Shown in pieces: positions 7,976-30,712 of a stretch of DNA of 64,000 nt. The notes under the pieces are model-generated. The model was not told the DNA's origin. It was given only the letters and a program-made list of their open reading frames with translations, and did not search any database. Source of the DNA: Sphingobacteriia bacterium. GTDB taxonomy: Bacteria; Bacteroidota; Bacteroidia; Bacteroidales; UBA7960. The stretch covers positions 51,150 to 115,149 of the forward strand of contig JAABRR010000015.1 of NCBI GenBank assembly GCA_011390785.1, written 5' to 3'. How positions within the stretch are numbered: the first letter of the stretch is position 1; each line of letters starts with the position of its first letter. The position numbers and the translations under genes were made by a program.

Positions 7976-8010
7976 AAACCCAAAATAGTATTATTTTGGG
8001 TTTTGTTTTG
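7976..8010 (+). terminator. rho-independent terminator after the response regulator gene
   Basis: 'aaacccaaaata' and 'tattttgggttt' form a 12-bp stem, followed by a T-rich tail 'tgttttg'. Confidence 0.6.
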
Positions 8011-8211
8011 CTCTAAAATTTCAGAAAAATTCTTTTTTCAGGAAGAAGGTTCAGACAGTATTTTTTTCCAGAGTGTTGAAAATGTGATAGATTAAAAATG
8101 CGGGGAGTATTTTGATGGGGGTAAAATTCCGTGTATTACCAATTCATTTCGCGTAAATTTACGGTTTCCCTGGTAGGATCTGGAATGTAAATTTGAATAA
8201 AAATTACATAC

Positions 8212-8529: not shown

Positions 8530-8640
8530 TTTGAATTAAAAGGAATTGATATTGATTTGATTTGTTTTTGTTTGTTTTATTTTGTTTTTGGGTTTGTAAA
8601 GTTTTGTTAAGTACTCTTCAAGTTAACAAAACTGATAATA

Positions 8641-8674
8641 AGCAGATAGAGGTTCGTCCGATATCTGCTTTTTT
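8641..8674 (+). terminator. rho-independent terminator
   Basis: 'agcagata' and 'tatctgct' form an 8-bp stem with a 13-nt loop, followed by a T6 run. Confidence 0.5.
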
Positions 8675-8844
8675 ATTATGTATTTAATGCCTTAATCTGC
8701 GTTTACTCATAAAGCCGTAAGGATTCAAACAAAAATATAACGGGTTAAATAGTAATATTTTATATTTATTAACCGCTAATATTTAATGCAATTATCTATA
8801 ACAGGAATTATGATAATGGAAAAAATGATTTTTAACGAAACTTT

Positions 8845-9939: not shown

Positions 9940-10284
9940 TGGAAATTTTTATATGTTTTCAGTTCCTAAAATCTATGTTCTATTAAAGTAATCTAAAGTA
10001 AATTATTTATAAAATAATATGCAATAATAAAAGAAGAAAATATTGGTTTTATTCAAAGATACTAAAATGAAAGTGAAGAGATTTACTTGAAACGCCGAAA
10101 TTTTGACGGGTAAAAGATCTTAAAGGAGTTCATTTAACACTTGATGTTGGTTTAAATAAAGCAATTTTTCCTTAAATCTATAAATCAAACGGATAAGCAA
10201 CAAGAGTTAAAACAAGATAAATAATTACAGAATAAGAAGAAACGTATTTTCATAATTTTGCCTCCATTTATCGGCTTTGAATTG

Positions 10285-10292
10285 TATATTTG
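10285..10292 (+). promoter_or_regulatory. candidate Bacteroidota sigma-A -7 box (TATATTTG)
   Basis: It matches TAnnTTTG about 90 nt upstream of the lptF/G-like start. The nearest upstream TTTG is spaced slightly too far for an ideal -33 element. Confidence 0.25.
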
Positions 10293-10381
10293 CAGTCATT
10301 TTAAAATAAAGCTTTCTGTTTACTTATAGCTTCTATTGCGGTTAACAAAAAGCTATATCAATTTATAATCATCTACAATTT

Positions 10382-13043: not shown

Positions 13044-13045
13044 AA

Positions 13046-14245
13046 ATGTTTGATAGTCAACCACTTTTCCTTTTAATATTTCAGGTAATTTTCTGGTTTA
13101 GCGTTGCCATCATTTTTTATTCTTATCTTGTTTTTCCATTGATTATTAAGTCACTGGCCTCCGGTAAAAAGTTATTGCTGAGTAAGTTTATGTCAACCGA
13201 TCAACTCCCATTTGTAAGTATTCTCATTTCAGCCTTTAATGAAGAAGAAGTTATAGAGCAAAAAATAAAAAGTTTATTCGCTACCCACTATCCTGCCGAT
13301 AAATTTGAAGTATTGATTGGTAGTGATGCTTCAGACGATAATACAGACGCTATTATATCAAATTTACAAAAGCAATTTCCTTCGCTTAGGTTTTTTCCCT
13401 TTAAGCAGCGCAGAGGCAAGGGAAACGTAATTAACGATCTATTCAATTATTCTGAAGGGGAAATAATTATTCTCACAGACGCCAATGTGATGCTCAATGA
13501 AGAGACTATTTTTGAATTGGTAAAATTTTTTAAGGATGATAAGGTTGGATTGGTTGACACGCGAATGATCAATACCCATATTCATCAGGATGGCATTTCT
13601 TATCAGGAGAAATCTTATATTGCCCGCGAAGTGTCAATAAAACAGCATGAAAGTATTTTGTGGGGTACTATGATGGGGCCTTTTGGCGGTTGTTTTGCCT
13701 TGCGGCGAACCCTATATGAACCTGTGCCTAAAAATTTTCTGGTTGATGATTTTTTTATCAATATGAAAGTTTTGGAAAAAGGATATCAATGCGTTAATAG
13801 TTTGGATGCCATAGTTTATGAGGATATTTCAAACAATTTAAAAGATGAGTACAGAAGAAAAGTAAGGATTTCTACCGGGAATTTTCAAAATCTCCGGCAT
13901 TTCTCTCATCTCTTGTGGCATAAAACCAAAGGCCTTTCTTTTTGTTTTATATCTCATAAAGCGTTACGTTGGTTTGGACCTGTCTTTTTAATTCTGGCCT
14001 TTATTTCCAACTTGCTGCTTGCTTTGCAGAGTGAAGTATATTTTTATATTTTTATTTTACACAGCTTTTTGATTGTACTACCTTTGTCAGACCTTTTATT
14101 GAAAAGGCTGGGAATGAATATAGCCGTTTTACGCTTTATAACTCATTTTTACAGTATGAACCTGGCATTATTGACCGGGTTTTTCAGAACTTTTAAAAAT
14201 ATTGAATCCAATGTCTGGAAGCCAACCAAAAGAAATCAAGCCTGA
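13046..14245 (+). CDS. membrane-bound glycosyltransferase family 2
   Basis: '[14 protein letters not shown]', 'GSDASDDNT' and 'ILTDANV' (DxD region) form a GT-A core flanked by TM helices. Confidence 0.8.
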
Positions 14246-15446
14246 CGATATAAAACTTAATACTATACCAGAAGCTATCGACGATATTAAAGCTGGTAAG
14301 GTTGTTATCGTAGTTGATGATGAAAGCAGAGAGAATGAAGGCGATTTTGTTGCTGCAGCTGAAACTATAACCCCCGAAATAGTAAACTTTATGGCCACGC
14401 ACGGCCGTGGACTTATATGTGCACCCATAACCCGTCAGCGTTGCGATTTGCTAAACCTTGATCTTATGGTTCCGAATAATACGGCAGCATACGAAACTCC
14501 ATTTACCATTTCTGTAGATTTACTAGGTCATGGATGCACAACAGGTATTTCTGCCAAAGACCGGGCGAAAACGATCAGAGCTCTCGCAGATAAAAAGATG
14601 AAACCTACTGATCTGGGACGCCCGGGGCATATTTTTCCTCTCAGGGCCCGGGAGGGGGGGGTTTTGCAAAGAGCCGGACATACAGAAGCAGCAATAGATC
14701 TTGCCCGTATGGCCGGACTTGAACCTGCCGGAGCTCTCGTAGAAATTATGAATGAAGATGGCACTATGGCTCGTTTGCCCGAATTGGTTCAGATTGCCCG
14801 AAAATTTGATCTTAAAATAGTTTCCATTGAAGCCCTGATTGCTCATAGAATAAGTACCGAAAGTCTTATTTCACAAGAAATTACAGTTGATTTACCCACC
14901 GAATGGGGAACATTTAAACTTACAGCCTTTCGGCAAACAACCAACGGTAAACTCCATCTTGCCCTTACTAAAGGAACCTGGCAACCAGGTGACGAAGTGT
15001 TGGTCAGGGTGCACTCTTCATGTGTTACCGGTGATATTTTTGGTTCTTGCCGCTGCGATTGTGGAAGCCAGCTGCATAAAGCCATGCAAATGGTTGAAGA
15101 AGAAGGGACAGGGGTTGTATTATACATGAATCAGGAAGGACGAGGTATTGGCTTATTGAACAAGTTAAAGGCATACCACCTTCAGGAAAAGGGGCTGGAT
15201 ACAGTAGAAGCTAATATCGAGCTCGGTTTTAAAGCAGATGAAAGAGACTATGGCATTGGCGCACAGATTTTACGTAGCCTGGGGGTTACCCGTGTTAAAC
15301 TAATTACAAATAACCCAAGTAAAAGAACAGGGCTTTCCGGATATGGAATTGAGATTACCGAGAATATTCCAATTATTATTCCTGCAGGTCCACATTCTCA
15401 ATTCTATATGGATACCAAAAAAAATAAAATGGGACATTTGTTATAG
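14202..15446 (+). CDS. ribBA: bifunctional 3,4-dihydroxy-2-butanone-4-phosphate synthase / GTP cyclohydrolase II
   Basis: '[12 protein letters not shown]' and '[14 protein letters not shown]' (RibB half). '[22 protein letters not shown]' and 'NQEGRGIGL' (RibA half). It overlaps the GT2 gene by 44 nt. Confidence 0.93.
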
Positions 15447-16663: not shown

Positions 16664-17131
16664 ATGACTAAAGTTGAAGAATTAGTAAAAAAGCAGGCCG
16701 AATTTCACGGTTACAAACGTGAAAGCCTTATGCCCATTCTTCAGGCCGTTGTTCGGTCAGAGAGGTTTCTCTCAGAGGAAGCCATGGTAGCCATAGCCAA
16801 AGAACTTGATATCAGCACTGCTGATGTATATGGTACTGCCTCCTTTTACACTTTCATGGACACCAAACCCCGGGGTAAAAATATCATCAGGGTTTGTAAA
16901 ACCATAACCTGCCATATGAAAGGTAAAGATGGTGTAATTGAAGCTTTGGAAGATACATTAAAAATCAAGCTTGGCGACACAACACCTGATGGGAAGTTTA
17001 GTCTGTTGCAGGCCAATTGCCTGGGATGGTGTCATAAAGGTCCGGTAATGCTTATTAACGACGAAGTGTATCCGGAGTTAACACCACAGTCTGCTGTTGA
17101 AATTATTCAGAAATACCTCAAGCAGAAGTAA
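16664..17131 (+). CDS. NuoE/HydC-like [2Fe-2S] thioredoxin-fold subunit (operon 1)
   Basis: Cys ligands 'VCKTITCHM' and 'ANCLGWCHKGPVM'. 'ASFYTFM' is typical of the NuoE family. Confidence 0.85.
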   Translation: MTKVEELVKKQAEFHGYKRESLMPILQAVVRSERFLSEEAMVAIAKELDISTADVYGTASFYTFMDTKPRGKNIIRVCKTITCHMKGKDGVIEALEDTLKIKLGDTTPDGKFSLLQANCLGWCHKGPVMLINDEVYPELTPQSAVEIIQKYLKQK

Positions 17132-17170: not shown

Positions 17171-18328
17171 ATGGATAACAAAATAAAAAAGGTTGACCTT
17201 ATTTTCGAAAATGTTGATTATCTCGAAGTTTTGGAGCGCTCTTTTAAACGCAGCCAGGATGAGATAATTCTTGATATAATTGATTCTGGCTTAAGGGGAA
17301 GGGGAGGAGCCGGATTTCCAACAGGATTAAAATGGAAATTTGCAAAGAATGAAGAAGCAGAGCAAAAATATGTAATATGTAATGCCGATGAGGGCGAACC
17401 GGGCACATTTAAAGACCGGGAAATTCTTACTCAGGTACCCGATAAAGTTCTGGCTGGTATGGCTCTTTGCGGAAAAGCTACAGGAGCCAATGAAGGATAT
17501 ATATATCTTAGGGGTGAATATAATTTCCTTTTGCCCAGTCTCCTTTCTTCTATAGAAAAATTTCATGATCAGTTAAAACAACTTAATTTTGATTTTACCA
17601 TTCATATAAAATCAGGCAGTGGTGCTTATGTATGTGGAGAAGAAACAGCCCTGATGGAGTCTATGGAAGGTAAACGTGGTGAACCAAGAAATAAACCTCC
17701 ATTTCCTACTACGGCTGGTTACCTGGGGCAACCAACATCTATCAATAATGTGGAAACACTTGTTTTTGCTCTGATGATAGCAAAGGAAGGGCCGACTAAA
17801 TTCAAAGAAATGGGTACATTCGACTCTCGCGGGTCTAAAGTATTTTCTGTTTCGGGCGATACTCCAAAGGCTGGGATCTATGAGCTTGAACTTGGAATGA
17901 GCCTTGAAGATTTTGTAAATGAATTTGGCGATGGTGATACAAAAGCTGTTCAGATTGGAGGAGCCTCCGGATTTTGTGTGGCCCGCAAGCATTTTAAAGA
18001 AACTGTAATTGGTTTCGAAGGGATTCCAACCGGCGGTTCTATGATGCTCTTTAACAGCACCCGATCTATGTTTAATATATTGAATGACTATCTTGAATTC
18101 TTTGAAGAAGAATCCTGCGGACAGTGCACCCCCTGTAGGGTGGGCTGCCAGCAATTACTTAAAGGAATTGAAGCAGTTAAAAGAGGAATTAAACCACCAA
18201 GTTATCTGGATGAATTGCAAAAGCTTTCTGAAACCATGAAGCTTGCATCGAAATGTGGTTTGGGCCAATCTGCTCCCAATCCTTTTAATTCAATTATTAA
18301 TAATTTCAGGGAGGAAATAATCTATTAA
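17171..18328 (+). CDS. NuoF/HydB-like flavoprotein subunit, minimal form (no N-terminal [2Fe-2S] domain, no C-terminal 2x[4Fe-4S] domain)
   Basis: 'GRGGAGFPTGLKWKF' (FMN), 'CNADEGEPGTFKDR', 'GSGAYVCGEETALMES' (NADH), and 'ESCGQCTPCRVG...CGLGQSAPNP' (N3-type 4Fe-4S). It is 385 aa, against 597 aa for the paralogue at 26331. Confidence 0.85.
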   Translation: MDNKIKKVDLIFENVDYLEVLERSFKRSQDEIILDIIDSGLRGRGGAGFPTGLKWKFAKNEEAEQKYVICNADEGEPGTFKDREILTQVPDKVLAGMALCGKATGANEGYIYLRGEYNFLLPSLLSSIEKFHDQLKQLNFDFTIHIKSGSGAYVCGEETALMESMEGKRGEPRNKPPFPTTAGYLGQPTSINNVETLVFALMIAKEGPTKFKEMGTFDSRGSKVFSVSGDTPKAGIYELELGMSLEDFVNEFGDGDTKAVQIGGASGFCVARKHFKETVIGFEGIPTGGSMMLFNSTRSMFNILNDYLEFFEEESCGQCTPCRVGCQQLLKGIEAVKRGIKPPSYLDELQKLSETMKLASKCGLGQSAPNPFNSIINNFREEIIY

Positions 18329-18408: not shown

Positions 18409-20190
18409 ATGAGCCCTTACAAAGTATCTCTTAAAATAAATAATTTATCAGTGTCTGTAGATGAAGGCACTACCATTCTGGAAGCAGCCCGCAAACTGAA
18501 TTTTAAGATTCCAACCTTATGCCACCATGATGACCTGTGCGTTGCAGGCAATTGTCGTGTATGTGTAGTTGAGCAGGTTGGTAACCGTGTTCTGCCGGCA
18601 TCTTGCGCAACTCCTGTATCTGAAGGAATGGAAATTCTTACCAATAGCATGAAGGTAAGACAGGCCCGTAAACATATTATTGAATTGCTACTTTCTGAAC
18701 ATAATGCTGAATGTACCATTTGCTATAAAAATGGCAATTGTGAATTGCAGGAATTGTCAAACGAATACAGAACAGGAAACCGTATGTTTCTTGATGTTCT
18801 AAAGAAATCTGCGGTTGATATTTCTTCACCGTCAATAGAAAAAGACGATTCAAAATGTATCCGCTGTCAGCGATGTGTCAGAACATGTTCCCAGCTGCAG
18901 GCTGTAAGTGCCCTTGGTGTTATCAACAAGGGAAAAGATATGAAAATATCTACCTTCCTTAATAAGCCTATGAACGATGTAGTTTGTACCAACTGCGGAC
19001 AGTGCGTAAACCGTTGCCCCACCGCTGCCCTGGTTGAAAGAAATTATATCGATCAGGTATTTGATGCCATTTACGATCCGAAAAAATTTGTGGTTGTTCA
19101 AACAGCCCCGGCCACAAGGGTGGCAATCAGTGAAGAGTTTGGGATGGGACCCAACCGGTCTACCGGAAAAATGGTGGCAGCATTGCGCCGTCTGGGATTC
19201 GATAAAGTACTCGACACCGATTTTACTGCCGACCTCACCATTATGGAAGAAGGCACAGAACTATTGACCCGCCTTAAAGAAGCTTTGGTTGATGGCAAAA
19301 ATGTTGCACTGCCAATGATGACCAGCTGCTCTCCCGGTTGGATTAAATTTCAGGAACATATATTCCCGGAATTACTGGATAATCTATCAACCTGCAAATC
19401 ACCACAGCAAATGTTTGGCCCCCTGGCAAAAACATACTACGCAGAAAAGATCAATAAAAATCCTGCCGATATGGTTGTAGTATCTATTATGCCATGTACA
19501 GCTAAAAAATATGAAGCCGACCGGCCCGAAATGCGAGGAAGCGGCTATAAAGATGTTGATTTTGTGCTTACTACACGCGAAATGGGTATGATGATTAAAC
19601 AAGCTGGTATCGATTTTGAAAAGCTTAGCGACGAGAAATACGATAGTATTCTGGGAGAGTCTAGTGGTGCTGCAGTGATTTTTGGAAACACCGGCGGTGT
19701 TATGGAAGCTGCTATACGCACTGCCTATGAAATTGTTACAGGACGAGAAGTTCCTTTCACCAACCTGAATATAAAGCCTGTAAGAGGCATGGAAGGTATC
19801 AAGGAAGCATCTGTTAAGATTAAGGATGTGAAACCTGAGTGGAGTTTCCTTGAAGGTGTGGAACTTAAGGTAGCCATAGCACATGGTTTATCTAATGCAA
19901 AAGAACTGATGACCAGTGTTAAAAACGGCACTGCCAATTATCATTTCATTGAAGTGATGGGCTGTCCGGGAGGTTGCATTGGTGGTGGTGGCCAACCTAT
20001 TCCTACCAACATGGAAATTCGTAAGAAGAGAGCCGCTGCCATTTACGAAGAAGATGAGAAAATGACCATCCGTAAGTCGCACGAAAATCCCGAAGTGCAG
20101 GAAGTTTATGCATCTTTCCTTCACAAACCCCTTGGACATCGTTCTCACGATCTGCTTCATACTCATTATACTGCTAAAAAGCGTTATTAA
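18409..20190 (+). CDS. [FeFe]-hydrogenase catalytic subunit, M3-type architecture, L1 motif variant TSCSP
   Basis: N-terminal [2Fe-2S] region 'CHHDDLCVAGNCRVC'. 'HNAECTICYKNGNC'. Two 4Fe-4S motifs, 'CIRCQRCVRTC' and 'CTNCGQCVNRCP'. H-cluster motifs 'MMTSCSPGW', 'MPCTAKKYE' and 'EVMGCPGGCIGGGGQP'. Confidence 0.92.
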   Translation: MSPYKVSLKINNLSVSVDEGTTILEAARKLNFKIPTLCHHDDLCVAGNCRVCVVEQVGNRVLPASCATPVSEGMEILTNSMKVRQARKHIIELLLSEHNAECTICYKNGNCELQELSNEYRTGNRMFLDVLKKSAVDISSPSIEKDDSKCIRCQRCVRTCSQLQAVSALGVINKGKDMKISTFLNKPMNDVVCTNCGQCVNRCPTAALVERNYIDQVFDAIYDPKKFVVVQTAPATRVAISEEFGMGPNRSTGKMVAALRRLGFDKVLDTDFTADLTIMEEGTELLTRLKEALVDGKNVALPMMTSCSPGWIKFQEHIFPELLDNLSTCKSPQQMFGPLAKTYYAEKINKNPADMVVVSIMPCTAKKYEADRPEMRGSGYKDVDFVLTTREMGMMIKQAGIDFEKLSDEKYDSILGESSGAAVIFGNTGGVMEAAIRTAYEIVTGREVPFTNLNIKPVRGMEGIKEASVKIKDVKPEWSFLEGVELKVAIAHGLSNAKELMTSVKNGTANYHFIEVMGCPGGCIGGGGQPIPTNMEIRKKRAAAIYEEDEKMTIRKSHENPEVQEVYASFLHKPLGHRSHDLLHTHYTAKKRY

Positions 20191-20560: not shown

Positions 20561-20593
20561 CTTCATTTGGGGTGTAATTAAATATTGGTGGTT

Positions 20594-21244
20594 ATGAGAA
20601 TAAAATCCGGAAACAACACAAATGCTTTGAACCAGATTCCCGAGCCTACCTTAAGGCGTTTGCCAGGTTATCTGAGTTTTTTAAAATCATTAAAGATCAA
20701 TGCTGTAGAATATGTCTCAAGCAGTCAGATAGCAGCCAATTTTAAAATGGATTCTACCTTGGTAACCAAGGATCTTGCTTACACAGGAATAAAAGGACGA
20801 ACAAAAATTGGATACAATGTAGATAGTCTGATCAATACCATTATTGCCTTTCTTGATTTTAATACACATGAAAAGGCATTTCTTTTTGGAGTGGGCAACC
20901 TCGGGAAGGCATTGATAAAATATCAGGGATTACGAAGCTATGGATTAGATATAGTGGCAGGCTTTGATATTGATTCGTCTGTAACCAACCAGATACTTAA
21001 TGGTATTAAAATTTACCCTATAGATGAGTTTCGCGATCTTTCGCGCAAAACAGATGTTAGGCTGGGCATCATAACCACCCCTGATGCCAAAGCCCAGGAA
21101 ATAGCCGACCTTATGGTTGCATGGGGTATAAAGGGAATCTGGAATTTTACCCCACAAACCATTAAAGTGCCTGATAATATTGTAGTAGAAAACACTTCGA
21201 TATACTCTGATCTGGCTGTTTTGCTCAATCGGCTCAACAATTAG
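20594..21244 (+). CDS. rex: redox-sensing transcriptional repressor Rex
   Basis: 'IPEPTLRRLPGYLSFL' winged-helix N-terminus, 'SSSQIAANF', Rossmann 'FGVGNLGKAL', and 'GIWNFTP'. The TTG at 20585 is an alternative start. Confidence 0.9.
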   Translation: MRIKSGNNTNALNQIPEPTLRRLPGYLSFLKSLKINAVEYVSSSQIAANFKMDSTLVTKDLAYTGIKGRTKIGYNVDSLINTIIAFLDFNTHEKAFLFGVGNLGKALIKYQGLRSYGLDIVAGFDIDSSVTNQILNGIKIYPIDEFRDLSRKTDVRLGIITTPDAKAQEIADLMVAWGIKGIWNFTPQTIKVPDNIVVENTSIYSDLAVLLNRLNN

Positions 21245-21439: not shown

Positions 21440-21524
21440 CGGTATTAAACAGGAAGATATGGTCTGTTTAGTTTAATAATTGGCAAGTCCTTTCAATATT
21501 ATAACTCTCTTTTTTAACATCAGC

Positions 21525-21872
21525 ATGATGACCATAAAACAAATTTCCGAATTATTAGAAGCTACAATAGTTTGCGGCGAAGACCGTAAAGAGCATAAAA
21601 TTGAAATGGCATTTGCTTCAGATCTGATGAGTGATGTGCTAACGCTCAGTGATAATAATGTAATGCTTATTACAGGTTTATCTAATATGCAGGCGTTGCG
21701 TACCGCTGAAATGGCAGAAATACCTGCCATTATATTTGCCAGGAATAAAAAAATATCAGAAGAAATGAAAGAACTGGCTATTGAGAATGATATCATCGTT
21801 TTGGAGTGCAGATTTTCAGTTTTTAAGGTTTCTGGGATGTTATTTAATAATGGAATTTCCCCCGTTTTTTAA
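21525..21872 (+). CDS. DRTGG domain protein (copy 1)
   Basis: 'ASDLMSDVLTL...VMLITGLSNMQALRTAEMAEIPAIIF...' resembles the small DRTGG-type proteins found next to hydrogenase genes, and also resembles the paralogue at 23804. The ORF is open from 21480. Confidence 0.55.
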   Translation: MMTIKQISELLEATIVCGEDRKEHKIEMAFASDLMSDVLTLSDNNVMLITGLSNMQALRTAEMAEIPAIIFARNKKISEEMKELAIENDIIVLECRFSVFKVSGMLFNNGISPVF

Positions 21873-21883
21873 TTTTGTATTGT

Positions 21884-22300
21884 ATGCATTTCGAATACCA
21901 GATTGAAGGTGGAAATTTTACCCGTGCCGGTTTTGCTTCCAGCGAAATAAAAAAAATGATGAAGCAGCTGAATGTTGATATGGGTGTTATTAAGCGTACG
22001 GTTGTATCTACCTACGAAGCCGAAGTAAATGTAGTTGCTCATGCATTTAGCGGTACAATCTATGTTGATCTTGATGAAGAAAAAATTGTAATACAGTTGC
22101 AGGATCAAGGTCCGGGAATACCAGATATTGATCAGGCAATGAAAGAGGGTTTCTCTACTGCAAGTAGTGCTGTGCGCGAAATGGGCTTTGGAGCAGGTAT
22201 GGGTTTACCCAATATTAAGCGTAATGCCGACGATTTTCAAATTACCAGCGAGGTAAATAAAGGCACTAACGTAAAAATAACAATGTTCTTCAATAAGTAA
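21884..22300 (+). CDS. GHKL-type ATP-binding protein, anti-sigma-factor-kinase-like (HATPase_c_2 type)
   Basis: 'YEAEVNVVAHA' (N-box region), 'LQDQGPGIPD' (G1, DxGxG) and 'GFGAGMGLPNI' (G2). It has no HisKA/DHp domain. The TTG at 21875 is an alternative start, 2 nt after the upstream stop. Confidence 0.65.
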   Translation: MHFEYQIEGGNFTRAGFASSEIKKMMKQLNVDMGVIKRTVVSTYEAEVNVVAHAFSGTIYVDLDEEKIVIQLQDQGPGIPDIDQAMKEGFSTASSAVREMGFGAGMGLPNIKRNADDFQITSEVNKGTNVKITMFFNK

Positions 22301-22403: not shown

Positions 22404-23783
22404 ATGGTAATGGACACAAAGTATTTTCATCACGCATTAAAGTTCCGTAAGGATGTTTGTATTGGTTGCTCGCATTGTATGAGTGTTTGCCCTACATATG
22501 CTATCCGTATTCGTGACGGAAAGGCCGATTTGCTTGATAATTATTGTGTTGATTGTGGAAGATGCTACAGAGCCTGTCCTGTAGGTGCAATTATAGTTGA
22601 ACAAGACGATTTAAGACAGATTTTCAACTACAGCAAAAGGGTAGCTATTATTCCTTCCGTTTTAATGGGGCAGTTTCCTTCATCAGTATCCATAACACAG
22701 GTAACCAGTGTTTTAATGGAACTTGGTTTTACCCATGTCTATGAAGTAGAACACGGTGTAGAAGTGCTTAAATCCCAGATGAGCGAATATATTTCAGAAA
22801 ACACTGACATCCGGCCTTTAATTTCAACATTTTGTCCGGCTATTGTGAGGTTGATACAGGTTCGGTTTCCAAATCTTACCCCTAATCTGATTCTTCTAAA
22901 GTCTCCGCTTGATATCGCTGCAGCTTATTACAACAAGAAACTTATTGATGAAGGAAATAAGGCAGAAGAGATAGGTATTTTTTATATTACCCCATGTGCT
23001 GCAAAAATTGCCGCTGTGAAAAGTCCGGTAGGACAGAAAAATTCTCCTATTACCGGGGTTATCAATATGGATTATATTTTTAATAAAGTTTATACCGCTG
23101 TTAAGCAGGGTTTTCCAGGTAAAGACTCTCGGATATTCCCATCACGCGACCCCTTAAAATCTTCCGGTATTACATGGCCTGCAACAAATGGCGAAGCCGC
23201 ACACATGCCCGGCAGAACCCTCGCAATAGACGAGATCAATAATGTTATAGAATTTCTTGAACAACTTGAAAATGAAGAAAATCAGGATATTGACTTTCTT
23301 GAGTTACGCGCTTGCGATGAAAGCTGTGCAGGCGGAATTCTTACCAGCAGCAATCGGTTTTATACTGTGGAAAGGTTAAAAAAGAGAGCGCAACGCTCTG
23401 AAAATAAAGAAAAGGACAATAACTACCGGTATGTAAATCCCGGACCTATCATTGAATATAAAGAATTTTTAAAGCAGAATCTGGCCATTAAAAAAATTCA
23501 GCCCCGATCCATGGAAAAGCTTGATGAAAATATTTCTTTGGCGATGAAAAAAATGGAACAGGTTCATGAGATATTAGACAATCTTCCATATGTAGATTGT
23601 GGTATTTGTGGCTCTCCCACCTGCAGTGTTTTGGCTGAAGACATTGTGCAGGGGCATGCAAATATTAATCAATGCATCTACGTTCAAAAAAACCTTGAAC
23701 AAAAAGGTGATCTAACTTCCTTGCAATCAATGGAAATCCTCAAAAAAATTTGGGGTAAAGATAAATTTGAAGATAAGCAATAA
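22404..23783 (+). CDS. [FeFe]-hydrogenase-like sensory protein: 2x[4Fe-4S] ferredoxin domain + degenerate H-cluster domain + C-terminal 4-Cys Fe-S domain; no PAS domain
   Basis: 'CIGCSHCMSVCP' and 'CVDCGRCYRACP'. The H-domain motifs are altered: 'ISTFCPAIV' (L1), 'ITPCAAKIAA' (L2) and 'ELRACDESCAGG' (L3), with all four cluster-ligating Cys retained. The C-terminus has 'DCGICGSPTCSVLAEDIVQGHANINQC'. Confidence 0.8.
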   Translation: MVMDTKYFHHALKFRKDVCIGCSHCMSVCPTYAIRIRDGKADLLDNYCVDCGRCYRACPVGAIIVEQDDLRQIFNYSKRVAIIPSVLMGQFPSSVSITQVTSVLMELGFTHVYEVEHGVEVLKSQMSEYISENTDIRPLISTFCPAIVRLIQVRFPNLTPNLILLKSPLDIAAAYYNKKLIDEGNKAEEIGIFYITPCAAKIAAVKSPVGQKNSPITGVINMDYIFNKVYTAVKQGFPGKDSRIFPSRDPLKSSGITWPATNGEAAHMPGRTLAIDEINNVIEFLEQLENEENQDIDFLELRACDESCAGGILTSSNRFYTVERLKKRAQRSENKEKDNNYRYVNPGPIIEYKEFLKQNLAIKKIQPRSMEKLDENISLAMKKMEQVHEILDNLPYVDCGICGSPTCSVLAEDIVQGHANINQCIYVQKNLEQKGDLTSLQSMEILKKIWGKDKFEDKQ

Positions 23784-23803: not shown

Positions 23804-24136
23804 ATGACAGTAAACGAAATTAAAGAAAGACTCTCTCTTACAATTTTGGGCGGACAAAAAGGATTGAATAACCAGGTTTCTGGTGGCTATGTCTCAGACT
23901 TGCTTAGTGATGTAATGGGAAATGCTGATGCAGCCCAGGTATGGATAACCTTGCAAACCCATAAAAATGTTATGGCTATAGCATCGTTAAAAGACCTCGC
24001 AGCTGTTATTTTGATAAACAACCATCAGCCCGACGAAGATATGCTGGGGCAAAGTAATGAAGAAGGAATTCCTGTTTTGGCAACATCGCTTAGTGCTTTC
24101 GAAGTAACCGGCAAGCTCTACGAACTTTTAAAATAG
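23804..24136 (+). CDS. DRTGG domain protein (copy 2)
   Basis: 'GGYVSDLLSDVMGNADAAQVWITLQTHKNVMAIASLKDLAAVILIN...EEGIPVLATSLSAFEVTGKLYELL'. Confidence 0.6.
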   Translation: MTVNEIKERLSLTILGGQKGLNNQVSGGYVSDLLSDVMGNADAAQVWITLQTHKNVMAIASLKDLAAVILINNHQPDEDMLGQSNEEGIPVLATSLSAFEVTGKLYELLK

Positions 24137-24140
24137 CAGT

Positions 24141-24884
24141 ATGCAACAGTTTTTGGCCGATCTACATATCCATACTTTGCTTTCGCCATGTGGCGATCTG
24201 GAGATGAGCCCTGCCAATATTGTTGCCTCCGCTCAGAAGAAAAACCTTGATATTATTGGCATTGCTGACCATAATTCAACCAAACACGGGCCCCTGATTA
24301 AAAAACTTGCCGCAGCCTGCGGAATATTTACCCTTTGCGGTGCCGAAGTAACAACAAGGGAAGAAACTCATTGCCTGGCGTTCTTTGAGAATAATACATC
24401 ACTCAGTGAGTTTCAGGAATATCTGGATGCTCACCTGCCTAATGTTAAAAACGATCCTAAGTACTTTGGTTATCAGGTGGTTGTTGATGAACAGGAAATG
24501 ATTTTAGAAGAAGTGGAGAAGCTGCTTATTTCTGCCCTTAACCAATCCATTGATCAGGTTGAAAGAAAAGTACATTCGTTGGGTGGATTATTCATTCCTG
24601 CCCATATCGATCGGGCCAAGTTTAGTCTGGTAAGCCAGTTGGGATTTGTTCCACCAGGACTTAATGCCGATGCCCTTGAAATATCATTTAAAACCACCAA
24701 AGATCAAATGCTGAAACAGTTTCCCTATCTTAAAAATTTCAGCTTTATCCGTAGTTCCGATGCCCATTTTCCTGATCAGTTAGGTAATTATTCTACCATC
24801 TTTGAAATGGAAGAAGTAAATTTCGACGAAATTAAAAAAGCTTTAAAAGGTGTTGATGGCAGGAAGGTGATTATACAGGATTAA
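24141..24884 (+). CDS. PHP (polymerase/histidinol-phosphatase) family metal-dependent phosphoesterase
   Basis: 'ADLHIHTLLSPCGD', 'IGIADHNS', 'IPAHIDR' and 'SSDAH' are PHP metal-ligand motifs. Confidence 0.8.
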   Translation: MQQFLADLHIHTLLSPCGDLEMSPANIVASAQKKNLDIIGIADHNSTKHGPLIKKLAAACGIFTLCGAEVTTREETHCLAFFENNTSLSEFQEYLDAHLPNVKNDPKYFGYQVVVDEQEMILEEVEKLLISALNQSIDQVERKVHSLGGLFIPAHIDRAKFSLVSQLGFVPPGLNADALEISFKTTKDQMLKQFPYLKNFSFIRSSDAHFPDQLGNYSTIFEMEEVNFDEIKKALKGVDGRKVIIQD

Positions 24885-24969: not shown

Positions 24970-25509
24970 ATGAAAGAACTTTCACTACATGTACTTGATG
25001 TTATTCAAAATTCGGTGAGTGCCAATGCTGCCAATATTCATCTCATCATACATGAAAATTCATCTGCTGAAACCCTTACCATTATTATTGAAGATGACGG
25101 AAAAGGCATGGCTCCCGAAGTTCTGGGAAAAGTAACCGATCCCTTCTTTACATCGCGAACAACCAGAAAAGTAGGATTAGGAATACCCCTATTTAAGCAA
25201 AATGCTGAAATATCAGGTGGTTCCTTTAAAATAACTTCTCAATTGGGCAAGGGTACACGTGTAAAAGCCGTGTTTGGCCTTTCGCACTTCGATCGGCCTC
25301 CACTTGGCGATATTGCGGGTGTTGTTATGTTAATGGTAAGCTCAAATCTACATATCAATTTCTTTTATCAACACAAGATAGATCAGAAAATGTATGAGTT
25401 TAACACACCCGAAATAAAGGAGGTGCTTGAAGATCTGCCCCTGAATGACCCTGCGGTTATTCGTCACTTAAAAGAGATGATAAATGAGAATTTAAAAGAT
25501 TTAAGGTAG
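24970..25509 (+). CDS. GHKL-type ATP-binding protein (histidine-kinase-like ATPase, no DHp or sensor domain)
   Basis: 'LHVLDVIQNSVSANA' (N box), 'IEDDGKGM' (G1), 'DPFFTSRTTRKVGLGIPLFKQ' (G2 region) and 'GKGTRV'. Confidence 0.7.
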   Translation: MKELSLHVLDVIQNSVSANAANIHLIIHENSSAETLTIIIEDDGKGMAPEVLGKVTDPFFTSRTTRKVGLGIPLFKQNAEISGGSFKITSQLGKGTRVKAVFGLSHFDRPPLGDIAGVVMLMVSSNLHINFFYQHKIDQKMYEFNTPEIKEVLEDLPLNDPAVIRHLKEMINENLKDLR

Positions 25510-25913: not shown

Positions 25914-26312
25914 ATGACAAAAATTAAATCGTTAGCAGATTTAAAAAAAATGAAGAGCGATCTTCAATCACAAATTTCTATCAGACAAAAGAGTGAGAAC
26001 CCAGAGGGAAGAACACTCATCAGAATAGGAATGGGTACCAGTGGAATTGCATCTGGTGCAAAACAGGTTATGGAATTTCTAATGGATGAGTTGGAAAAAC
26101 GTAATGTGGATGCCATTGTAACACAGGTTGGCGATATGGGTTACAGTTATGCTGATCCTACTGTTGAGGTTACTGTTCCGGGCAAAGACCCATTGGTTTT
26201 TGGTGACGTTACCATCAAAAAAGCTGATGACATCATTGAAAAGTATATTAAAAACGGAGAATTGCTCGATGGCATCATTCCGGTAAATTATGAAACCATT
26301 GATAAAAAATAA
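25914..26312 (+). CDS. HndB-like thioredoxin-fold protein with no cysteine (cannot bind a [2Fe-2S] cluster)
   Basis: 'IRIGMGTSGIASGA...VTQVGDMGYSYADPTVEV' aligns with the (V)C(M)GTCGIAAGA ... GC.G.C..EP pattern of HndB/HydB-N domains, but every Cys position is replaced. The 132-aa protein contains no Cys. Confidence 0.6.
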   Translation: MTKIKSLADLKKMKSDLQSQISIRQKSENPEGRTLIRIGMGTSGIASGAKQVMEFLMDELEKRNVDAIVTQVGDMGYSYADPTVEVTVPGKDPLVFGDVTIKKADDIIEKYIKNGELLDGIIPVNYETIDKK

Positions 26313-26330: not shown

Positions 26331-28124
26331 ATGGCAAAATACAAAATGCATATGCTGGTTTGTGGGGGTACGGGTTGTCGTGCTTCTGCCAGCGACATGC
26401 TTTATGAAAGTTTAAAAAAAGAAGTTCAGGATAACAATCTGGAAAATGAAGTTCAGGTTGTTACTACCGGTTGCTTTGGGTTTTGCGAAAAGGGCCCCAT
26501 TGTTAAAATGATTCCCGACAATACTTTTTATGTGAGTGTTGAACCTAAAGATGCCAAAGAATTGGTGGCCGAGCATGCGCTAAAAGGTCGTAAGGTAAAT
26601 CGTCTTTTGTACGTGGACCCCACCAATAAGGAGCAAATATCAGACAGTAAGCATATGGGTTTTTACAAAAAACAAATCCGTATAGCTTTGCGCAATTGTG
26701 GTCTTATAAACCCTGAAAATATTGAAGAATATCTGGCTGCTGATGGCTACGAAGCTATGGGCAAGGTTTTGCTTGAAATGACACCTGAAGAGGCCATCAA
26801 AGTAGTTTTAGATTCCGGACTTCGCGGTAGGGGTGGTGGTGGTTTTCCCACAGGACTAAAATGGCAGATTGCCAGTAAAAACGAAGCAGACCAAAAATAT
26901 GTAGTTTGTAATGCAGACGAAGGCGACCCCGGTGCATTTATGGATCGTTCTATCCTTGAAGGCGACCCCCACACTGTACTCGAAGCAATGGTAATCAACG
27001 GATATTGTATTGGTGCTACCAAAGGCCTTATTTACATCAGAGCTGAATATCCACTTGCAATTCAAAGGTTGAAAATCGCTATTGGGCAGGCCCGCGAATT
27101 TGGCCTGTTAGGGACAGACATTCTTGGCTCTGGTTTTGATTTCGATGTTGAGATACGTTATGGTGCCGGAGCTTTTGTTTGTGGTGAAGAAACAGCACTT
27201 ATACATTCTATGGAAGGCGAAAGGGGAGAACCTACTTTTAAACCACCATTCCCCGCTCAAAGCGGTTACCTTGGTAAACCTACCAACGTAAACAATGTGG
27301 AAACGTACGCCAACATTCCTGTAATTATAAACAAAGGTGCTGAGTGGTTTTCTTCTATCGGAACAGAAAAATCAAAAGGTACCAAAGTTTTTGCACTGGC
27401 CGGAAAGATCAATAATGTAGGCCTTATTGAAGTGCCCATGGGTATTACCCTGCGCGAAGTGATCTATGAAATTGGTGGTGGCATAAAAGGCGGTAAAAAG
27501 TTTAAAGCTGTTCAAACCGGTGGCCCATCAGGAGGTTGCTTAACAGAAAAGCATCTCGATATTCCTATCGACTTCGATAACCTGATTGCTGCCGGTTCTA
27601 TGATGGGCTCAGGTGGTATGATCGTAATGGACGAAGATGATTGTATGGTGGCTGTTGCCAAATTCTATCTCGAATTTACTGTTGAAGAGTCCTGCGGAAA
27701 ATGTTCTCCGTGTCGTGTTGGTAACAAACGTCTTCATGAACAACTCGACCTAATTACAAAAGGGAAAGCGACAATGGAGGATCTTGACAAGCTGAAAAAC
27801 CTCAGTAATGTAATTAAAGATACTTCGCTTTGTGGTTTGGGACAAACATCGCCCAACCCCGTTCTTTCTACCATGGAAAATTTCTATGATGAATATGTGG
27901 CTCACGTTACCGATCATAGATGTCCTTCTGGTGTATGTAAGGATCTTATTCGCTACGAAGTAATTGCCGAAAACTGCGTGGGTTGTACTGCTTGTGCCCG
28001 TAATTGTCCGGTTAACTGTATTTCTGGTGAGCGCAAGCAGGTGCACCTGATCGACCAGGTTTTGTGCATCAAATGTGGTGCGTGCCTCGAGAAATGTAAG
28101 TTTAATGCAATTGCAGTGATTTAA
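26331..28124 (+). CDS. hydB: NuoF/HydB-type flavoprotein subunit, full-length (N-terminal [2Fe-2S], FMN/NADH, [4Fe-4S], C-terminal 2x[4Fe-4S])
   Basis: 'VCGGTGCRAS...TGCFGFCEKGP', 'GRGGGGFPTGLKW', 'CNADEGDPGAFMDR', 'GAGAFVCGEETAL', 'ESCGKCSPCRVG', 'CVGCTACARNCP' and 'CIKCGACLEKC'. Confidence 0.92.
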   Translation: MAKYKMHMLVCGGTGCRASASDMLYESLKKEVQDNNLENEVQVVTTGCFGFCEKGPIVKMIPDNTFYVSVEPKDAKELVAEHALKGRKVNRLLYVDPTNKEQISDSKHMGFYKKQIRIALRNCGLINPENIEEYLAADGYEAMGKVLLEMTPEEAIKVVLDSGLRGRGGGGFPTGLKWQIASKNEADQKYVVCNADEGDPGAFMDRSILEGDPHTVLEAMVINGYCIGATKGLIYIRAEYPLAIQRLKIAIGQAREFGLLGTDILGSGFDFDVEIRYGAGAFVCGEETALIHSMEGERGEPTFKPPFPAQSGYLGKPTNVNNVETYANIPVIINKGAEWFSSIGTEKSKGTKVFALAGKINNVGLIEVPMGITLREVIYEIGGGIKGGKKFKAVQTGGPSGGCLTEKHLDIPIDFDNLIAAGSMMGSGGMIVMDEDDCMVAVAKFYLEFTVEESCGKCSPCRVGNKRLHEQLDLITKGKATMEDLDKLKNLSNVIKDTSLCGLGQTSPNPVLSTMENFYDEYVAHVTDHRCPSGVCKDLIRYEVIAENCVGCTACARNCPVNCISGERKQVHLIDQVLCIKCGACLEKCKFNAIAVI

Positions 28125-28149: not shown

Positions 28150-29922
28150 ATGGAACTTATCAAATTAACTATAGATAACAGAACTGTTGAGGTTGAAAAA
28201 GGTACCACTATTTTTCATGCAGCAAAAAAACTGGGTATCGAAATTCCCACGCTTTGCTATATGAACCTTAAGGACCTCAATATAGAGCACAAGCCCGGCG
28301 GTTGTCGTATTTGTGTGGTAGAAGTAGAAGGACGCCGTAACCTGGCACCCTCCTGTGCTACCGAATGTATGGAAGGAATGGTAGTGAAAACACATACCGT
28401 TCGTGTTCTCAACGCCAGAAGAACAGTATTGGAACTGATTATTTCTGATCATCCGTTCGACTGCCTTATCTGCGCCAAATCAGGCAATTGTGACCTACAG
28501 TCATTGGCCATCAAACTGGGTGTAAGAGATATTCCTTTCCAGGGCGAAAAGTCAACCTACAAGCCCGACTTTTCACCAGCCATTATCCGCGATATGGACA
28601 AATGTATCATGTGCCGCAGATGCGAAACCATGTGCAACGATTTTCAAACTGTTGGCGTGTTATCAGGCATCAACCGTGGTTTCGAAGCAGTTGTTGCACC
28701 CGCTTTTGAGCGCGACCTCGATCATAGCGAATGTACGTATTGCGGACAATGTGTGGCAGTATGCCCCACAGGCGCACTTACCGAAGTTGATCATACCAAA
28801 AATGTAATCGCTGCACTTTCTGATTCTAAGAAAACAGTTGTTGTACAAACTGCTCCCGCCGTTCGTGCTGCCCTGGGTGAAGAGTTTGGCCTTGAAGCTG
28901 GTACTTTGGTAACAGGTAAAATGGTTGCTGCATTACGTCAGTTAGGTTTTGACTATGTTTTCGATACCGATTTTGCTGCCGACCTTACCATCATGGAAGA
29001 AGGAACTGAACTTCTGGACAGACTTACCCGTCATTTGGGTGGTGATAAGGAAGTTAAGCTTCCCATCCTCACCTCCTGCTGCCCTGGTTGGGTTAATTTC
29101 TTTGAATACAATTACCCTGATATGATGGATGTACCATCTACAGCCCGCTCACCACAGCAAATGTTTGGTGCCATAGCCAAAACATATTTTGCCGAAAAAA
29201 TTAATGTGAAGCGCGAAGATATGGTTGTAGTTTCTATTATGCCATGTGTTGCTAAAAAATATGAATGTACCCGCGAAGAGTTCGCAACTGATGGCAACCC
29301 TGATGTTGATTTCTCCATTTCTACCCGCGAGCTGGCCCATTTCATCAAATCTGCCAACATCAATTTTAATGCATTGCCCGATGAAGATTTCGACAAACCT
29401 CTTGGCGAATCAACCGGTGCTGCAGTAATTTTTGGAACAACCGGCGGTGTTATTGAAGCAGCCGCCCGTACCGCTTACGAACTACACACAGGAAAAACGC
29501 TGGAGAAGGTTGATTTTGAAGCTCTCCGTGGCTTTGATGGAATCAGAAGCGCCAGCGTTGATTTTGATGGTGTTGATATTAAAATAGGTATAGCGCATGG
29601 GCTGGGCAATGCCCGCAAAATGCTCGATGATGTTAAAGCCGGCAGAAGCGAGTTTCATGCTATCGAAATTATGGCCTGCCCCGGTGGTTGCATTGGTGGT
29701 GGCGGTCAGCCATTGCACCATGGTGATTCATCAGTACTTAGAGCACGAGCCAAAGCAATATACTCGGAAGATGAGTCTAAAGTTTTGCGAAAATCACACG
29801 AAAACCCTTCCATTATTAAGCTTTACGAAGAATACCTGGGCAAACCCGGAAGTGAAAAAGCACACCACTTACTCCATACTCACTATTTTGATAAAAAATC
29901 AAAGCAGGTTTTATTGGATTAA
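28150..29922 (+). CDS. hydA: [FeFe]-hydrogenase catalytic subunit HydA, canonical H-cluster motifs
   Basis: 'ILTSCCPGW' (L1), 'MPCVAKKYE' (L2) and 'EIMACPGGCIGGGGQP' (L3). N-terminal [2Fe-2S], 'HPFDCLICAKSGNC', 'CIMCRRCETMC' and 'CTYCGQCVAVCP'. Confidence 0.95.
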   Translation: MELIKLTIDNRTVEVEKGTTIFHAAKKLGIEIPTLCYMNLKDLNIEHKPGGCRICVVEVEGRRNLAPSCATECMEGMVVKTHTVRVLNARRTVLELIISDHPFDCLICAKSGNCDLQSLAIKLGVRDIPFQGEKSTYKPDFSPAIIRDMDKCIMCRRCETMCNDFQTVGVLSGINRGFEAVVAPAFERDLDHSECTYCGQCVAVCPTGALTEVDHTKNVIAALSDSKKTVVVQTAPAVRAALGEEFGLEAGTLVTGKMVAALRQLGFDYVFDTDFAADLTIMEEGTELLDRLTRHLGGDKEVKLPILTSCCPGWVNFFEYNYPDMMDVPSTARSPQQMFGAIAKTYFAEKINVKREDMVVVSIMPCVAKKYECTREEFATDGNPDVDFSISTRELAHFIKSANINFNALPDEDFDKPLGESTGAAVIFGTTGGVIEAAARTAYELHTGKTLEKVDFEALRGFDGIRSASVDFDGVDIKIGIAHGLGNARKMLDDVKAGRSEFHAIEIMACPGGCIGGGGQPLHHGDSSVLRARAKAIYSEDESKVLRKSHENPSIIKLYEEYLGKPGSEKAHHLLHTHYFDKKSKQVLLD

Positions 29923-30015: not shown

Positions 30016-30507
30016 ATGACATCAGTAAAACTAAAATTAAAAGAAAGTGATGTGCAGAAACTGAAAGAAGTAGCTAAATCTTTCAATAATGAAGCTGGTG
30101 AGCTGATCAATGTTTTGCACAAAGCTCAGGAAATATTCGGCTATTTGCCTGCTGAGGTGCAGGAAGTAGTAGCTCAGGAACTAAATGTTCCGGTGGCCAA
30201 GGTCTATGGGGTTGTAACCTTTTATTCCTTCTTTACTATGTTGCCCCGTGGGCGTTACCCTATTTCTATATGCACGGGTACGGCATGTTACGTAAGAGGT
30301 GCTGAAAAAGTACTTGATGAGTTCAAACGGATTCTTAAAATTCCTGTTGGTGAAACAACCTCAGATGGTAAATTCTCTATTACCTGTCTCAGATGCGTGG
30401 GCGCCTGTGGTTTAGCTCCTGTTGTGATGGTGGGCGATAAAACCTATGGCCGAGTTACAACCGACGGCGTTAAGGATATCCTGAAAGAATACGACACTGA
30501 AGATTAG
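30016..30507 (+). CDS. hydC: NuoE/HydC-type [2Fe-2S] subunit (operon 2)
   Basis: 'ICTGTACYVRG' and 'LRCVGACGLAPVVM' are the Cys ligands. 'VTFYSFF'. Confidence 0.9.
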   Translation: MTSVKLKLKESDVQKLKEVAKSFNNEAGELINVLHKAQEIFGYLPAEVQEVVAQELNVPVAKVYGVVTFYSFFTMLPRGRYPISICTGTACYVRGAEKVLDEFKRILKIPVGETTSDGKFSITCLRCVGACGLAPVVMVGDKTYGRVTTDGVKDILKEYDTED

Positions 30508-30531
30508 TCTTTGTTTCGTATAACTCCCATT

Positions 30532-30567
30532 AAAAAAAAGGGCAGTTTAACGACTGTCCTTTTTTTT
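30532..30567. terminator. bidirectional rho-independent terminator after operon 2
   Basis: An A8 run, the stem 'gggcagt'/'actgtcc' (7 bp, one G-U pair), then a T-run. It lies between convergent hydC (+) and the DUF5777-like gene (-). Confidence 0.65.
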
Positions 30568-30712
30568 GCTATTTTGTTGAAACATATCTTCGATAACCAG
30601 CATGTTACATTCTTATAAATACATTCCTTATTTATATTATATATTTAAAACCAAGCATTAAAAAATCAGAGTGCCATTTTTAGCATCCAATTTTAAATGA
30701 TTTTCTGTTTTC

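Follow-up and report, generated by a model that had tools for sequence, protein, structure and literature searches.

A Group D [FeFe] hydrogenase of Bacteroidales, its Phe/Arg variation near the H-cluster and a conserved cassette of putative signalling partners

We analysed a 64,000-nt stretch of DNA (the window) from a Bacteroidales organism deposited as Sphingobacteriia bacterium (assembly GCA_011390785.1, contig JAABRR010000015.1, positions 51,150 to 115,149 of the forward strand). The window contains a gene, hydS, whose product is a putative sensory [FeFe] hydrogenase encoded ahead of the genes of a trimeric HydABC-type hydrogenase. Judged from its sequence features, HydS is an [FeFe] hydrogenase of Group D (M2e) and of the HydS type, related at the level of an orthologue to TamHydS, the enzyme of Thermoanaerobacter mathranii. 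The explanation of the locus that we consider quite probable is that HydS belongs to Group D, retains its H-cluster, signals through the partner proteins of a conserved gene cassette and works together with a second layer of control by Rex. Members of this family of slow, sensor-like enzymes are found next to the main hydrogen-producing enzymes of the cell, which they probably help to control. The comparison of this cassette gives concrete, testable leads for a wider question, that of H2 sensing in anaerobes and of the adjustment of hydrogenases to it. The window HydS brings nothing new to the protein family as such, as the class has been described and Bacteroidales members have been published. 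Three additions go beyond the literature that we consulted: a Phe/Arg signature of one Group D clade, gene fusions that join HydS to DRTGG-domain and ATPase proteins, and conserved candidate Rex operators.

The Group D/M2e class was defined in 2010-2012, and its biochemistry has been studied since 2019 through TamHydS (PMC6984386, PMC8163306, PMC10407848, PMC11803613, PMC13104023). M2e proteins have two N-terminal [4Fe-4S] motifs, an H-domain and a C-terminal Cx2Cx4Cx16C site for a fourth [4Fe-4S] cluster, and they lack a PAS domain; C299 and the group A proton pathway are lost, M353 is replaced by Ser or Thr, and the gene lies upstream of a heterotrimeric bifurcating hydrogenase, beside a histidine-kinase-like ATPase (PMC8163306). 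The proton pathway exclusive to Group D consists of E252, E289, D265 and S249 in TamHydS numbering (PMC10407848). All of these features were found in HydS, namely the Cys clusters, the C-terminal site, the absence of PAS, the loss of C299, Thr at the M353 position, the proton pathway and a locus upstream of HydABC. The alignment of HydS with TamHydS spanned the full length of the proteins (37% identity across 427 aa, E 3e-100), and that with the group A HydA of the window was only partial, at 23% identity. For TamHydS (435 aa) we used a sequence reconstructed from the coding sequence printed in the supplement of PMC13104023, which was damaged by optical character recognition; the result was verified at 19 published residue numbers. 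In a neighbour-joining tree HydS nested inside the M2e family with TamHydS and with named Group D proteins of Caldicellulosiruptor, Coprothermobacter, Caldanaerobius and Thermoanaerobacterium, and a histidine-kinase-fused relative and the group A HydAs fell outside the M2e clade in 38 of 40 bootstraps. A place inside a characterised catalytic clade, which a preliminary description of this DNA had named as fatal to its proposal of a sensor, was therefore not what this rough tree gave.

The family is large, with 4600 matches at E<=1e-10 among the scored candidates and 311 clusters at E<=1e-30 in a library clustered at 50% identity. The closest matches are proteins from metagenome-assembled genomes of Bacteroidales/Bacteroidota, annotated as '[Fe-Fe] hydrogenase large subunit C-terminal domain-containing protein'. 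A published list of 70 Group D enzymes includes the Bacteroidales/Marinilabiliales genera Parabacteroides, Odoribacter, Proteiniphilum, Alkaliflexus, Anaerophaga and Marinilabilia; the tie between the window HydS and these published members is one of taxonomy and family membership, not of accession identity. Carere et al. 2012 tabulated Athe_1292, TTE0887 and Cphy_3798 as 'D M2e' monomeric sensory hydrogenases, and genes such as Athe_1292 sit upstream of trimeric bifurcating hydrogenases (PMC3561251). One of the loci in our comparison, L004, appears to be that of Athe_1292, judged from the genome and the position of the gene rather than from locus tags.

HydS is composed of an F-domain (residues ~14-63), an H-domain (~70-330), linker helices and a C-terminal PF04060 [4Fe-4S] domain (394-426). 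Pfam gave matches to Fe_hyd_lg_C (E 7.6e-22, residues 89-311), to PF04060 ('FeS', 'Putative Fe-S cluster'; E 3.4e-11) and to Fer4 dicluster models (E ~1e-10), values well outside the range of chance. The protein has 16 Cys residues, of which eight belong to the ferredoxin-type clusters, four to the H-cluster and four to the C-terminus. All eight ferredoxin-type Cys are invariant in the alignment of homologues, and both N-terminal [4Fe-4S] motifs of Group D are present. In the L3 motif, C304 corresponds to a cluster ligand and C308 to the Cys that bridges to [2Fe]H, and in the alignment F143 of the L1 motif falls at the position of C299 in CpI and A137 in TamHydS. The signatures of group A (TSCCP, MPCxxKxxE and ExMxCxxGCxxGGGQP) are replaced by STFCP, TPCAAKIAA and ELRACDESCAGG. 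Neither Pfam nor NCBIfam gave a match to a PAS or other output domain in HydS at E<=1, and the chain ends ~35 residues after its last Cys, C424. The AlphaFold2 model of HydS, built from a 78-sequence alignment, was confident, with a pLDDT (predicted local distance difference test) score of 92.5 and a predicted template modelling (pTM) score of 0.90; its best Foldseek matches in the PDB were catalytic [FeFe] hydrogenases, at template modelling (TM) scores of ~0.6. A search of PDB sequences with HydS gave a polyferredoxin and catalytic HydA enzymes as best matches, and neither this search nor Foldseek returned a solved Group C or D structure.

These results bear out much of the preliminary description. 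The open reading frame, its two ferredoxin motifs, the four H-cluster Cys, the altered L1, L2 and L3 motifs and the Cx2Cx4Cx16C site were all recovered, every motif at the residues assigned to it, and the reported lack of a PAS domain held in the domain searches, which detected no other output domain either. Its picture of a PAS-less, sensor-type hydrogenase in which the proton-relay Cys is gone and separate partners carry the signal is supported by the gene order conserved across phyla and by the fusions described below; the same sensor/partner hypothesis is found in the Group D/M2e literature (PMC8163306, PMC3561251). Other parts need revision. The lineage is sensor-type and PAS-less as described but not new, being the known Group D/M2e. 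The statement that described HydS enzymes carry PAS is outdated, for TamHydS lacks it and has been characterised since 2019-2020, and the C-terminal four-Cys site that was called extra is the defining PF04060 domain common to Groups C and D. Finally, the H-cluster motifs are altered as reported, but these alterations are the norm for Group D, save for a Phe and an Arg that are specific to one clade.

This Phe and this Arg were examined by comparing 120 Bacteroidales-type homologues with 120 Group D homologues from Firmicutes. The C299 position is occupied by Phe in 118 and by Tyr in 2 of the Bacteroidales-type proteins, and by Ala in 115/120 of the Firmicutes set. The M497 position is Arg in every Bacteroidales-type protein (120/120) and Leu in 109/120 Firmicutes proteins. 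A further difference concerns D403 of TamHydS, just before the last C-terminal Cys, which has been proposed to tune (lower) the potential of the C-terminal cluster (PMC13104023): Asp is kept at this position in 116/120 Firmicutes proteins, whereas Gln or His occupies it in 104/120 Bacteroidales-type proteins (Arg, Asn or Tyr in the rest) and Q423 (nt 23670-23672) in HydS. The M353 position is Thr throughout the Bacteroidales-type set (120/120) and Ser or Thr throughout the Firmicutes set (120/120). Among 125 representative clusters the eight Cys of the H-cluster and C-terminus are essentially invariant and position 299 is never Cys. In these clusters an aromatic residue at 299 is paired with Arg or Lys at 497 in 16/23 cases, against 19/104 otherwise, a covariation that is uncorrected for phylogeny, and the combination of Phe/Tyr with Arg/Lys marks a monophyletic clade that holds the window HydS.

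Positions 299 and 497 are the residues on either side of the bridgehead amine of the azadithiolate (adt) ligand, and the corresponding changes in TamHydS, A137C and L291M, strongly alter the H-cluster (PMC11803613). No mention of a Phe/Arg variant at these positions was found in the Group D literature that we consulted. The four H-cluster Cys are invariant across the 240 homologues. Within the Phe/Arg clade the relay residues E264 and E300 and the bridging Cys C308 are likewise invariant (120/120), and K201, the equivalent of K358, is kept in 115/120. [quoted passage not shown] Bacteroidales, gut genera included, would then offer a natural Phe/Arg variant at two second-sphere positions that engineers mutate in TamHydS, and a protein of this clade is an obvious second model enzyme for Group D.

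The hydS gene is part of a cassette in which genes for a DRTGG-domain protein, a SpoIIAB-like ATPase, HydS, a second DRTGG-domain protein, a PHP-domain phosphoesterase and an ATPase consisting of a histidine-kinase-type CA domain are followed by the HydABC genes. This order is conserved from Firmicutes to Bacteroidales, and the block from DRTGG to HydA has one gene order in Thermoanaerobacter (the context of TamHydS), C. bescii and Bacteroidales. Two further loci, L006 and L007, share the whole 14-gene arrangement, including rex and a first hydrogenase. Across phyla the N, G1 and G2 boxes are invariant in both cassette ATPases, as are the PHP motifs HxH, DHNS, AHxDR and SSDAH, which hold the metal ligands; the DRTGG proteins have the invariant motifs SDLMSDVL and LxTGL...RTAE. 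The nearest solved relatives of the partners are SpoIIAB, histidine-kinase CA domains, the EndoQ PHP domain and, weakly for DRTGG, the N-terminal domain of HPr kinase.

Longer relatives of HydS (515-607 aa) in the representative library were inspected with Pfam. We found HydS followed by DRTGG in four proteins (P0261, P0263, P0327, P0343), DRTGG followed by HydS in two (P0335, P0342) and an N-terminal SpoIIAB-like HATPase_c_2 domain in one (P0303). The possibility that the longer relatives are PAS-containing Group C proteins was rejected, as PAS is absent from all of them: seven are DRTGG/HATPase fusions, and in the other three Pfam recognised no additional domain. Since other organisms fuse them to HydS, it is very likely that the DRTGG proteins and the SpoIIAB-like ATPase bind HydS directly, and the occurrence of fusions at either terminus would place these partners on one face of the protein. 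A more distant relative (26% identity to the window HydS), in locus L002 at 9965-11968, has a HydS-like core of Fer4, H-domain and PF04060 fused to HisKA and HATPase_c. HydB and HydA are encoded in its neighbourhood (5913-15010), along with a response regulator, a hybrid kinase and a protein of radical-SAM/BATS type resembling HydG or HydE. No relevant report on DRTGG with a hydrogenase, or on HydS with an anti-sigma factor or serine kinase, was found in the literature.

We also searched for Rex operators with the pattern TTGTKAAnnnnTTMACAA, allowing up to 2 mismatches. A Rex-like site lies 76-123 nt upstream of the first cassette gene (DRTGG) in 5/5 Bacteroidales loci (the window, L001, L005, L006 and L007), and such sites were found upstream of rex in three loci and upstream of structural hydrogenase genes in three loci. 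In Thermoanaerobacter a Rex-like site with one mismatch lies ahead of hydC. Across the window the number of matches (6 vs 3.75 expected) is not significant, and only position and conservation between loci carry weight; L001 has 4 matches against 0.47 expected, a number reached in 0/200 shuffles. Both cassette-associated sites of the window adjoin a TATCTTTG element, which we take to be a match to the Bacteroidetes -7 promoter consensus TAnnTTTG. A scan of the window for sigma-70 promoters, whose consensus is uninformative for Bacteroidetes, showed no enrichment (43 sites vs 43.6 expected). With these candidate operators, the HydS cassette would be a conserved member of the Rex regulon.

What is known of TamHydS suggests how such a cassette might work. 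TamHydS binds [4Fe-4S] clusters at two N-terminal sites and at a further, C-terminal one, the fourth of its clusters (PMC13104023 for the C-terminal site), and its H-cluster is complete. It combines slow H2 turnover with high H2 affinity and a stabilised Hred state, and interconverts H+ and H2 reversibly at low rates (PMC8163306). H2 reduces its H-cluster and an N-terminal cluster and induces a change in secondary structure. In the mechanism that we propose, H2 would reduce the H-cluster and an N-terminal cluster of HydS, and the DRTGG and ATPase partners bound to HydS would respond to the resulting conformational change. An ATP-dependent cycle of phosphorylation or partner switching, reset by the PHP phosphoesterase, might then adjust the expression or activity of the neighbouring hydrogenases. 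Rex, sensing NADH/NAD+ and acting at the operators that precede the cassette and the structural genes, would add the second layer of control. A bolder version, which we advance tentatively and think rather unlikely, holds both that Bacteroidales Group D proteins are a functionally distinct sensor variant (marked by covarying F143/R302 and by Gln or His near the C-terminal cluster) and that the cassette is a previously uncharacterised phospho-signalling pathway coordinating, with Rex, two paralogous HydABC-type hydrogenases, the upstream one of which is itself atypical. If so, the H-cluster of the variant might behave in a qualitatively different way, for example by turning over practically no H2, or by having its H2 affinity or its potential shifted.

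Several points weigh against a partner-signalling H2 sensor of Group D. The cassette encodes no DNA-binding protein, sigma factor or receiver domain. The roles of kinase, substrate and phosphatase are putative and assigned to the partners by homology only, and we know of no established function for the DRTGG domain. The Phe at the C299 position has a far larger side chain than Ala or Cys. The neighbour-joining tree is a rough method. For the whole Group D family, H2 sensing in vivo is no more than a putative role and is termed so in the literature (PMC8163306). Lastly, the C-terminal cluster of TamHydS was not reduced by H2 in a 2026 study, which removes the simplest model of signalling (PMC13104023).

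One alternative is that HydS is an Fe-S redox sensor whose diiron site is filled by F143 and R302, so that it reports the state of ferredoxin or the redox state through its [4Fe-4S] clusters; the preliminary description had likewise suggested that the 2Fe subcluster may no longer be bound. The near-universal replacement of Ala/Cys by Phe and of Leu/Met by Arg on the two sides of the adt amine speaks for this, as does the strong perturbation of the TamHydS H-cluster by mutations at both positions (PMC11803613). The H-domain score in Pfam is also weak, 78.6 bits compared with 322 bits for the true HydA of the window, but scores of 62-114 bits are typical of representatives of active TamHydS-like proteins. 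Moreover, if there were no [2Fe]H site, it would make no sense for the bridging Cys and for the Glu residues that relay to the adt amine to be conserved, nor for the K358 equivalent to be kept in nearly all members of the clade. K358 is the partner of a CN- ligand. The organism must have maturation machinery, since it encodes two HydA enzymes; no HydE, HydF or HydG gene was found among the 30 larger open reading frames of the window that were scanned. We therefore regard loss of the subcluster as disfavoured and quite improbable.

It is also conceivable that HydS is a slow catalytic hydrogenase, or a redox subunit that gives HydABC an extra module for electron entry or exit, with the ATPase, PHP and DRTGG proteins serving assembly or another function. 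The reversible activity of TamHydS fits this idea, as do the co-orientation and tight packing of hydS with the structural genes and, in Firmicutes, the location of the gene for the CA-only ATPase inside the structural operon, between hydC and hydB. Yet the canonical proton pathway is lost, the turnover of TamHydS is low, and the HydS core is fused elsewhere to a SpoIIAB-like ATPase, to DRTGG or, in a distant relative, to a full histidine kinase, all of which are signalling architectures. In addition, the NADH-dependent hydrogenase purified by Soboh et al. in 2004 from the close relative Caldanaerobacter reportedly contained HydA-D only. A catalytic or structural role thus seems to us hardly probable. 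Membership of another described group, whether Group C (M2f), with an output domain that escaped recognition, or a catalytic Group A or B enzyme, is already largely refuted and has next to no probability. Although PF04060 is common to Groups C and D and the best NCBIfam match of HydS is the group B1 model TIGR04105, the latter score is far below its cutoff (115.8 bits vs 450), as are those of the group A models TIGR02512 (78.6 vs 405.95) and NF040763 (A6; 70.4 vs 765). Only a short tail, with no domain match, follows Cx2Cx4Cx16C, where Group C carries PAS, and both the residues exclusive to Group D and the tree unite HydS with TamHydS. A Group D sensor with a retained H-cluster, acting through the cassette proteins, remains the explanation that we favour.

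Table 1. Positions of HydS motifs, neighbouring genes and candidate regulatory sites. Positions refer to the window unless another locus is named.
Feature	Position	Strand	Details
NuoE-like subunit	16664-17131	+	
Short NuoF-like subunit	17171-18328	+	385 aa
Upstream paralogue HydA	18409-20190	+	group A6 model, 869 bits; 50% identity to downstream HydA
Rex, redox-sensing transcriptional repressor	20585-21244	+	NF003994, 267.6 bits vs cutoff 130
Rex-operator-like site TTGTGAAAAAAATAACAA	21386-21403	+	77 nt upstream of cassette
Upstream DRTGG-domain protein	21480-21872	+	homologue alignment suggests that the true start is the Met at ~nt 21528
SpoIIAB/RsbW-like HATPase_c_2 protein (serine-kinase/anti-sigma type ATPase)	21875-22300	+	141 aa; anti-sigma F factor 1til, E 8e-8
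HydS, Group D (M2e) putative sensory [FeFe] hydrogenase	22404-23783	+	459 aa
HydS ferredoxin-type [4Fe-4S] motif 1, CIGCSHCMSVCP	22458-22493	+	residues 19-30; C19/C22/C25/C29
HydS ferredoxin-type [4Fe-4S] motif 2, CVDCGRCYRACP	22545-22580	+	residues 48-59; C48/C51/C54/C58
HydS L1 motif STFCP	22824-22838	+	residues 141-145; F143 at proton-relay position; C144, [4Fe-4S]H ligand
HydS L2 motif TPCAAKIAA	22989-23015	+	residues 196-204; T196 at M353 position; C198, cluster ligand; K201, K358 equivalent
HydS Group D-specific proton-pathway residues T261, E264, D276	23184-23231	+	equivalent to Tam S249, E252, D265 (defined in PMC10407848)
HydS L3 motif ELRACDESCAGG	23301-23336	+	residues 300-311; E300, Tam E289; R302 at M497/L291 position
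HydS C-terminal Cx2Cx4Cx16C site DCGICGSPTCSVLAEDIVQGHANINQC	23595-23675	+	residues 398-424; C399-x2-C402-x4-C407-x16-C424; PF04060
Second, downstream DRTGG-domain protein	23804-24136	+	
PHP-domain metal-dependent phosphoesterase	24141-24884	+	EndoQ PHP domain, E 8e-11
Stand-alone histidine-kinase-type CA ATPase domain	24970-25509	+	without DHp
Rex-operator-like site TTGTACAATAATTCACAA	25691-25708	+	ahead of structural genes; overlaps TATCTTTG element; conserved in L001, L006
Small open reading frame before HydB	25914-26312	+	132 aa; positional homologue of 121-137 aa open reading frame in other loci
HydB, NuoF-like	26331-28124	+	597 aa; trimeric HydABC-type [FeFe] hydrogenase
HydA, group A6	28150-29922	+	canonical TSCCP
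HydC, NuoE-like	30016-30507	+	
Strong intrinsic-terminator-like hairpin closing operon	30531-30568	+	17 pairs and T run
Rex-like sites, locus L001	980-997, 6813-6830		
Rex-like sites, locus L005	8107-8124, 8163-8180		
Rex-like sites, locus L006	7972-7989, 8971-8988, 15201-15218		
Rex-like sites, locus L007	8083-8100, 9075-9092		

Directly upstream of rex lies a second operon encoding NuoE-like, NuoF-like and HydA subunits (Table 1), and in L006 and L007, too, two hydrogenases are arranged around rex and the HydS cassette. The alignment of the NuoF-like subunit with the downstream HydB covers no more than residues 148-523 of the latter, so that the N-terminal 2Fe-2S and C-terminal ferredoxin domains are lacking. 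Because these domains are missing, the upstream enzyme could be non-bifurcating. The L1 motif of the upstream HydA is TSCSPGW rather than TSCCPGW, with Ser at the position of a [4Fe-4S]H ligand (CpI C300), and its L2 and L3 motifs are canonical. The Ser variant occurs in 116/120 homologues at 75-93% identity (Bacteroidales, Lentimicrobium), as well as in L006 (5731-7512) and L007 (6062-7846). A single mention of a TSCSPGW-type variant was found in the literature, for Melainabacteria (PMC3787301).

The small open reading frame before HydB gave no match in Pfam. It lacks the three Cys of its positional homologues, with GTSG in place of ATCG and VGDMGYS in place of TGCxGxC. These Cys are kept in Thermoanaerobacter, C. 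bescii, L001, L005 and L007, and the Cys-less form is common to the window and L006 only. In L006 a gene for an MFS-type transporter of ~425 aa (13295-14569) stands between the CA-ATPase gene and the small open reading frame; L001 has an unannotated 425-aa open reading frame at that position (5290-6567), and the window has a 400-nt intergenic region there.

Among known systems, HydS most resembles TamHydS. The two proteins are similar in length (459 and 435 aa), share the four-cluster architecture and the absence of PAS, and are encoded in an identical gene cassette upstream of HydABC. The E252/E289/D265/S-T249 pathway, a hydroxyl residue at M353, K358 and the interdomain contacts R30/R32 and E392/D393 are all kept in the window HydS. 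They differ in that HydS has Phe for Ala at the C299 position, Arg for Leu at the M497 position, Gln for D403 and Glu for K126. The window HydS comes from a Bacteroidales organism of mesophile type (37.8% GC) and, unlike in the TamHydS locus, hydC follows hydA instead of preceding the CA ATPase gene, and the region immediately upstream holds rex and a second hydrogenase operon.

Group C (M2f) proteins such as TmHydS likewise have F-clusters, an H-domain without the relay Cys, a Cx2Cx4Cx16C/PF04060 site and an adjacent bifurcating hydrogenase, but they carry a C-terminal PAS domain that the window HydS lacks, and they are without an E252-type relay (PMC10407848). Histidine-kinase-linked sensory hydrogenases, such as that of L002, share the core of Fer4, H-domain and PF04060 and the neighbouring HydB and HydA, whereas HisKA and HATPase_c are fused to this core and a response regulator is present; in the window the ATPases are separate proteins and a receiver domain is absent. 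The L002 type presumably corresponds to the 'C1' type of HydDB. The 141-aa neighbour of HydS recalls the SpoIIAB/SpoIIAA and RsbW/RsbV systems, being a SpoIIAB-like HATPase_c_2 protein with intact ATP-binding boxes. However, the cassette contains no STAS antagonist, PP2C phosphatase or sigma factor, and DRTGG proteins and the PHP phosphoesterase, with putative roles, stand in those positions. In Cupriavidus, H2 is sensed by the regulatory [NiFe] hydrogenase HoxBC together with the kinase HoxJ. That system has an unrelated metal site and fold, its histidine kinase contains PAS and its response regulator is defined, but the concept is alike, as H2 is perceived by a hydrogenase of low activity on behalf of a kinase by which hydrogenase genes are controlled.

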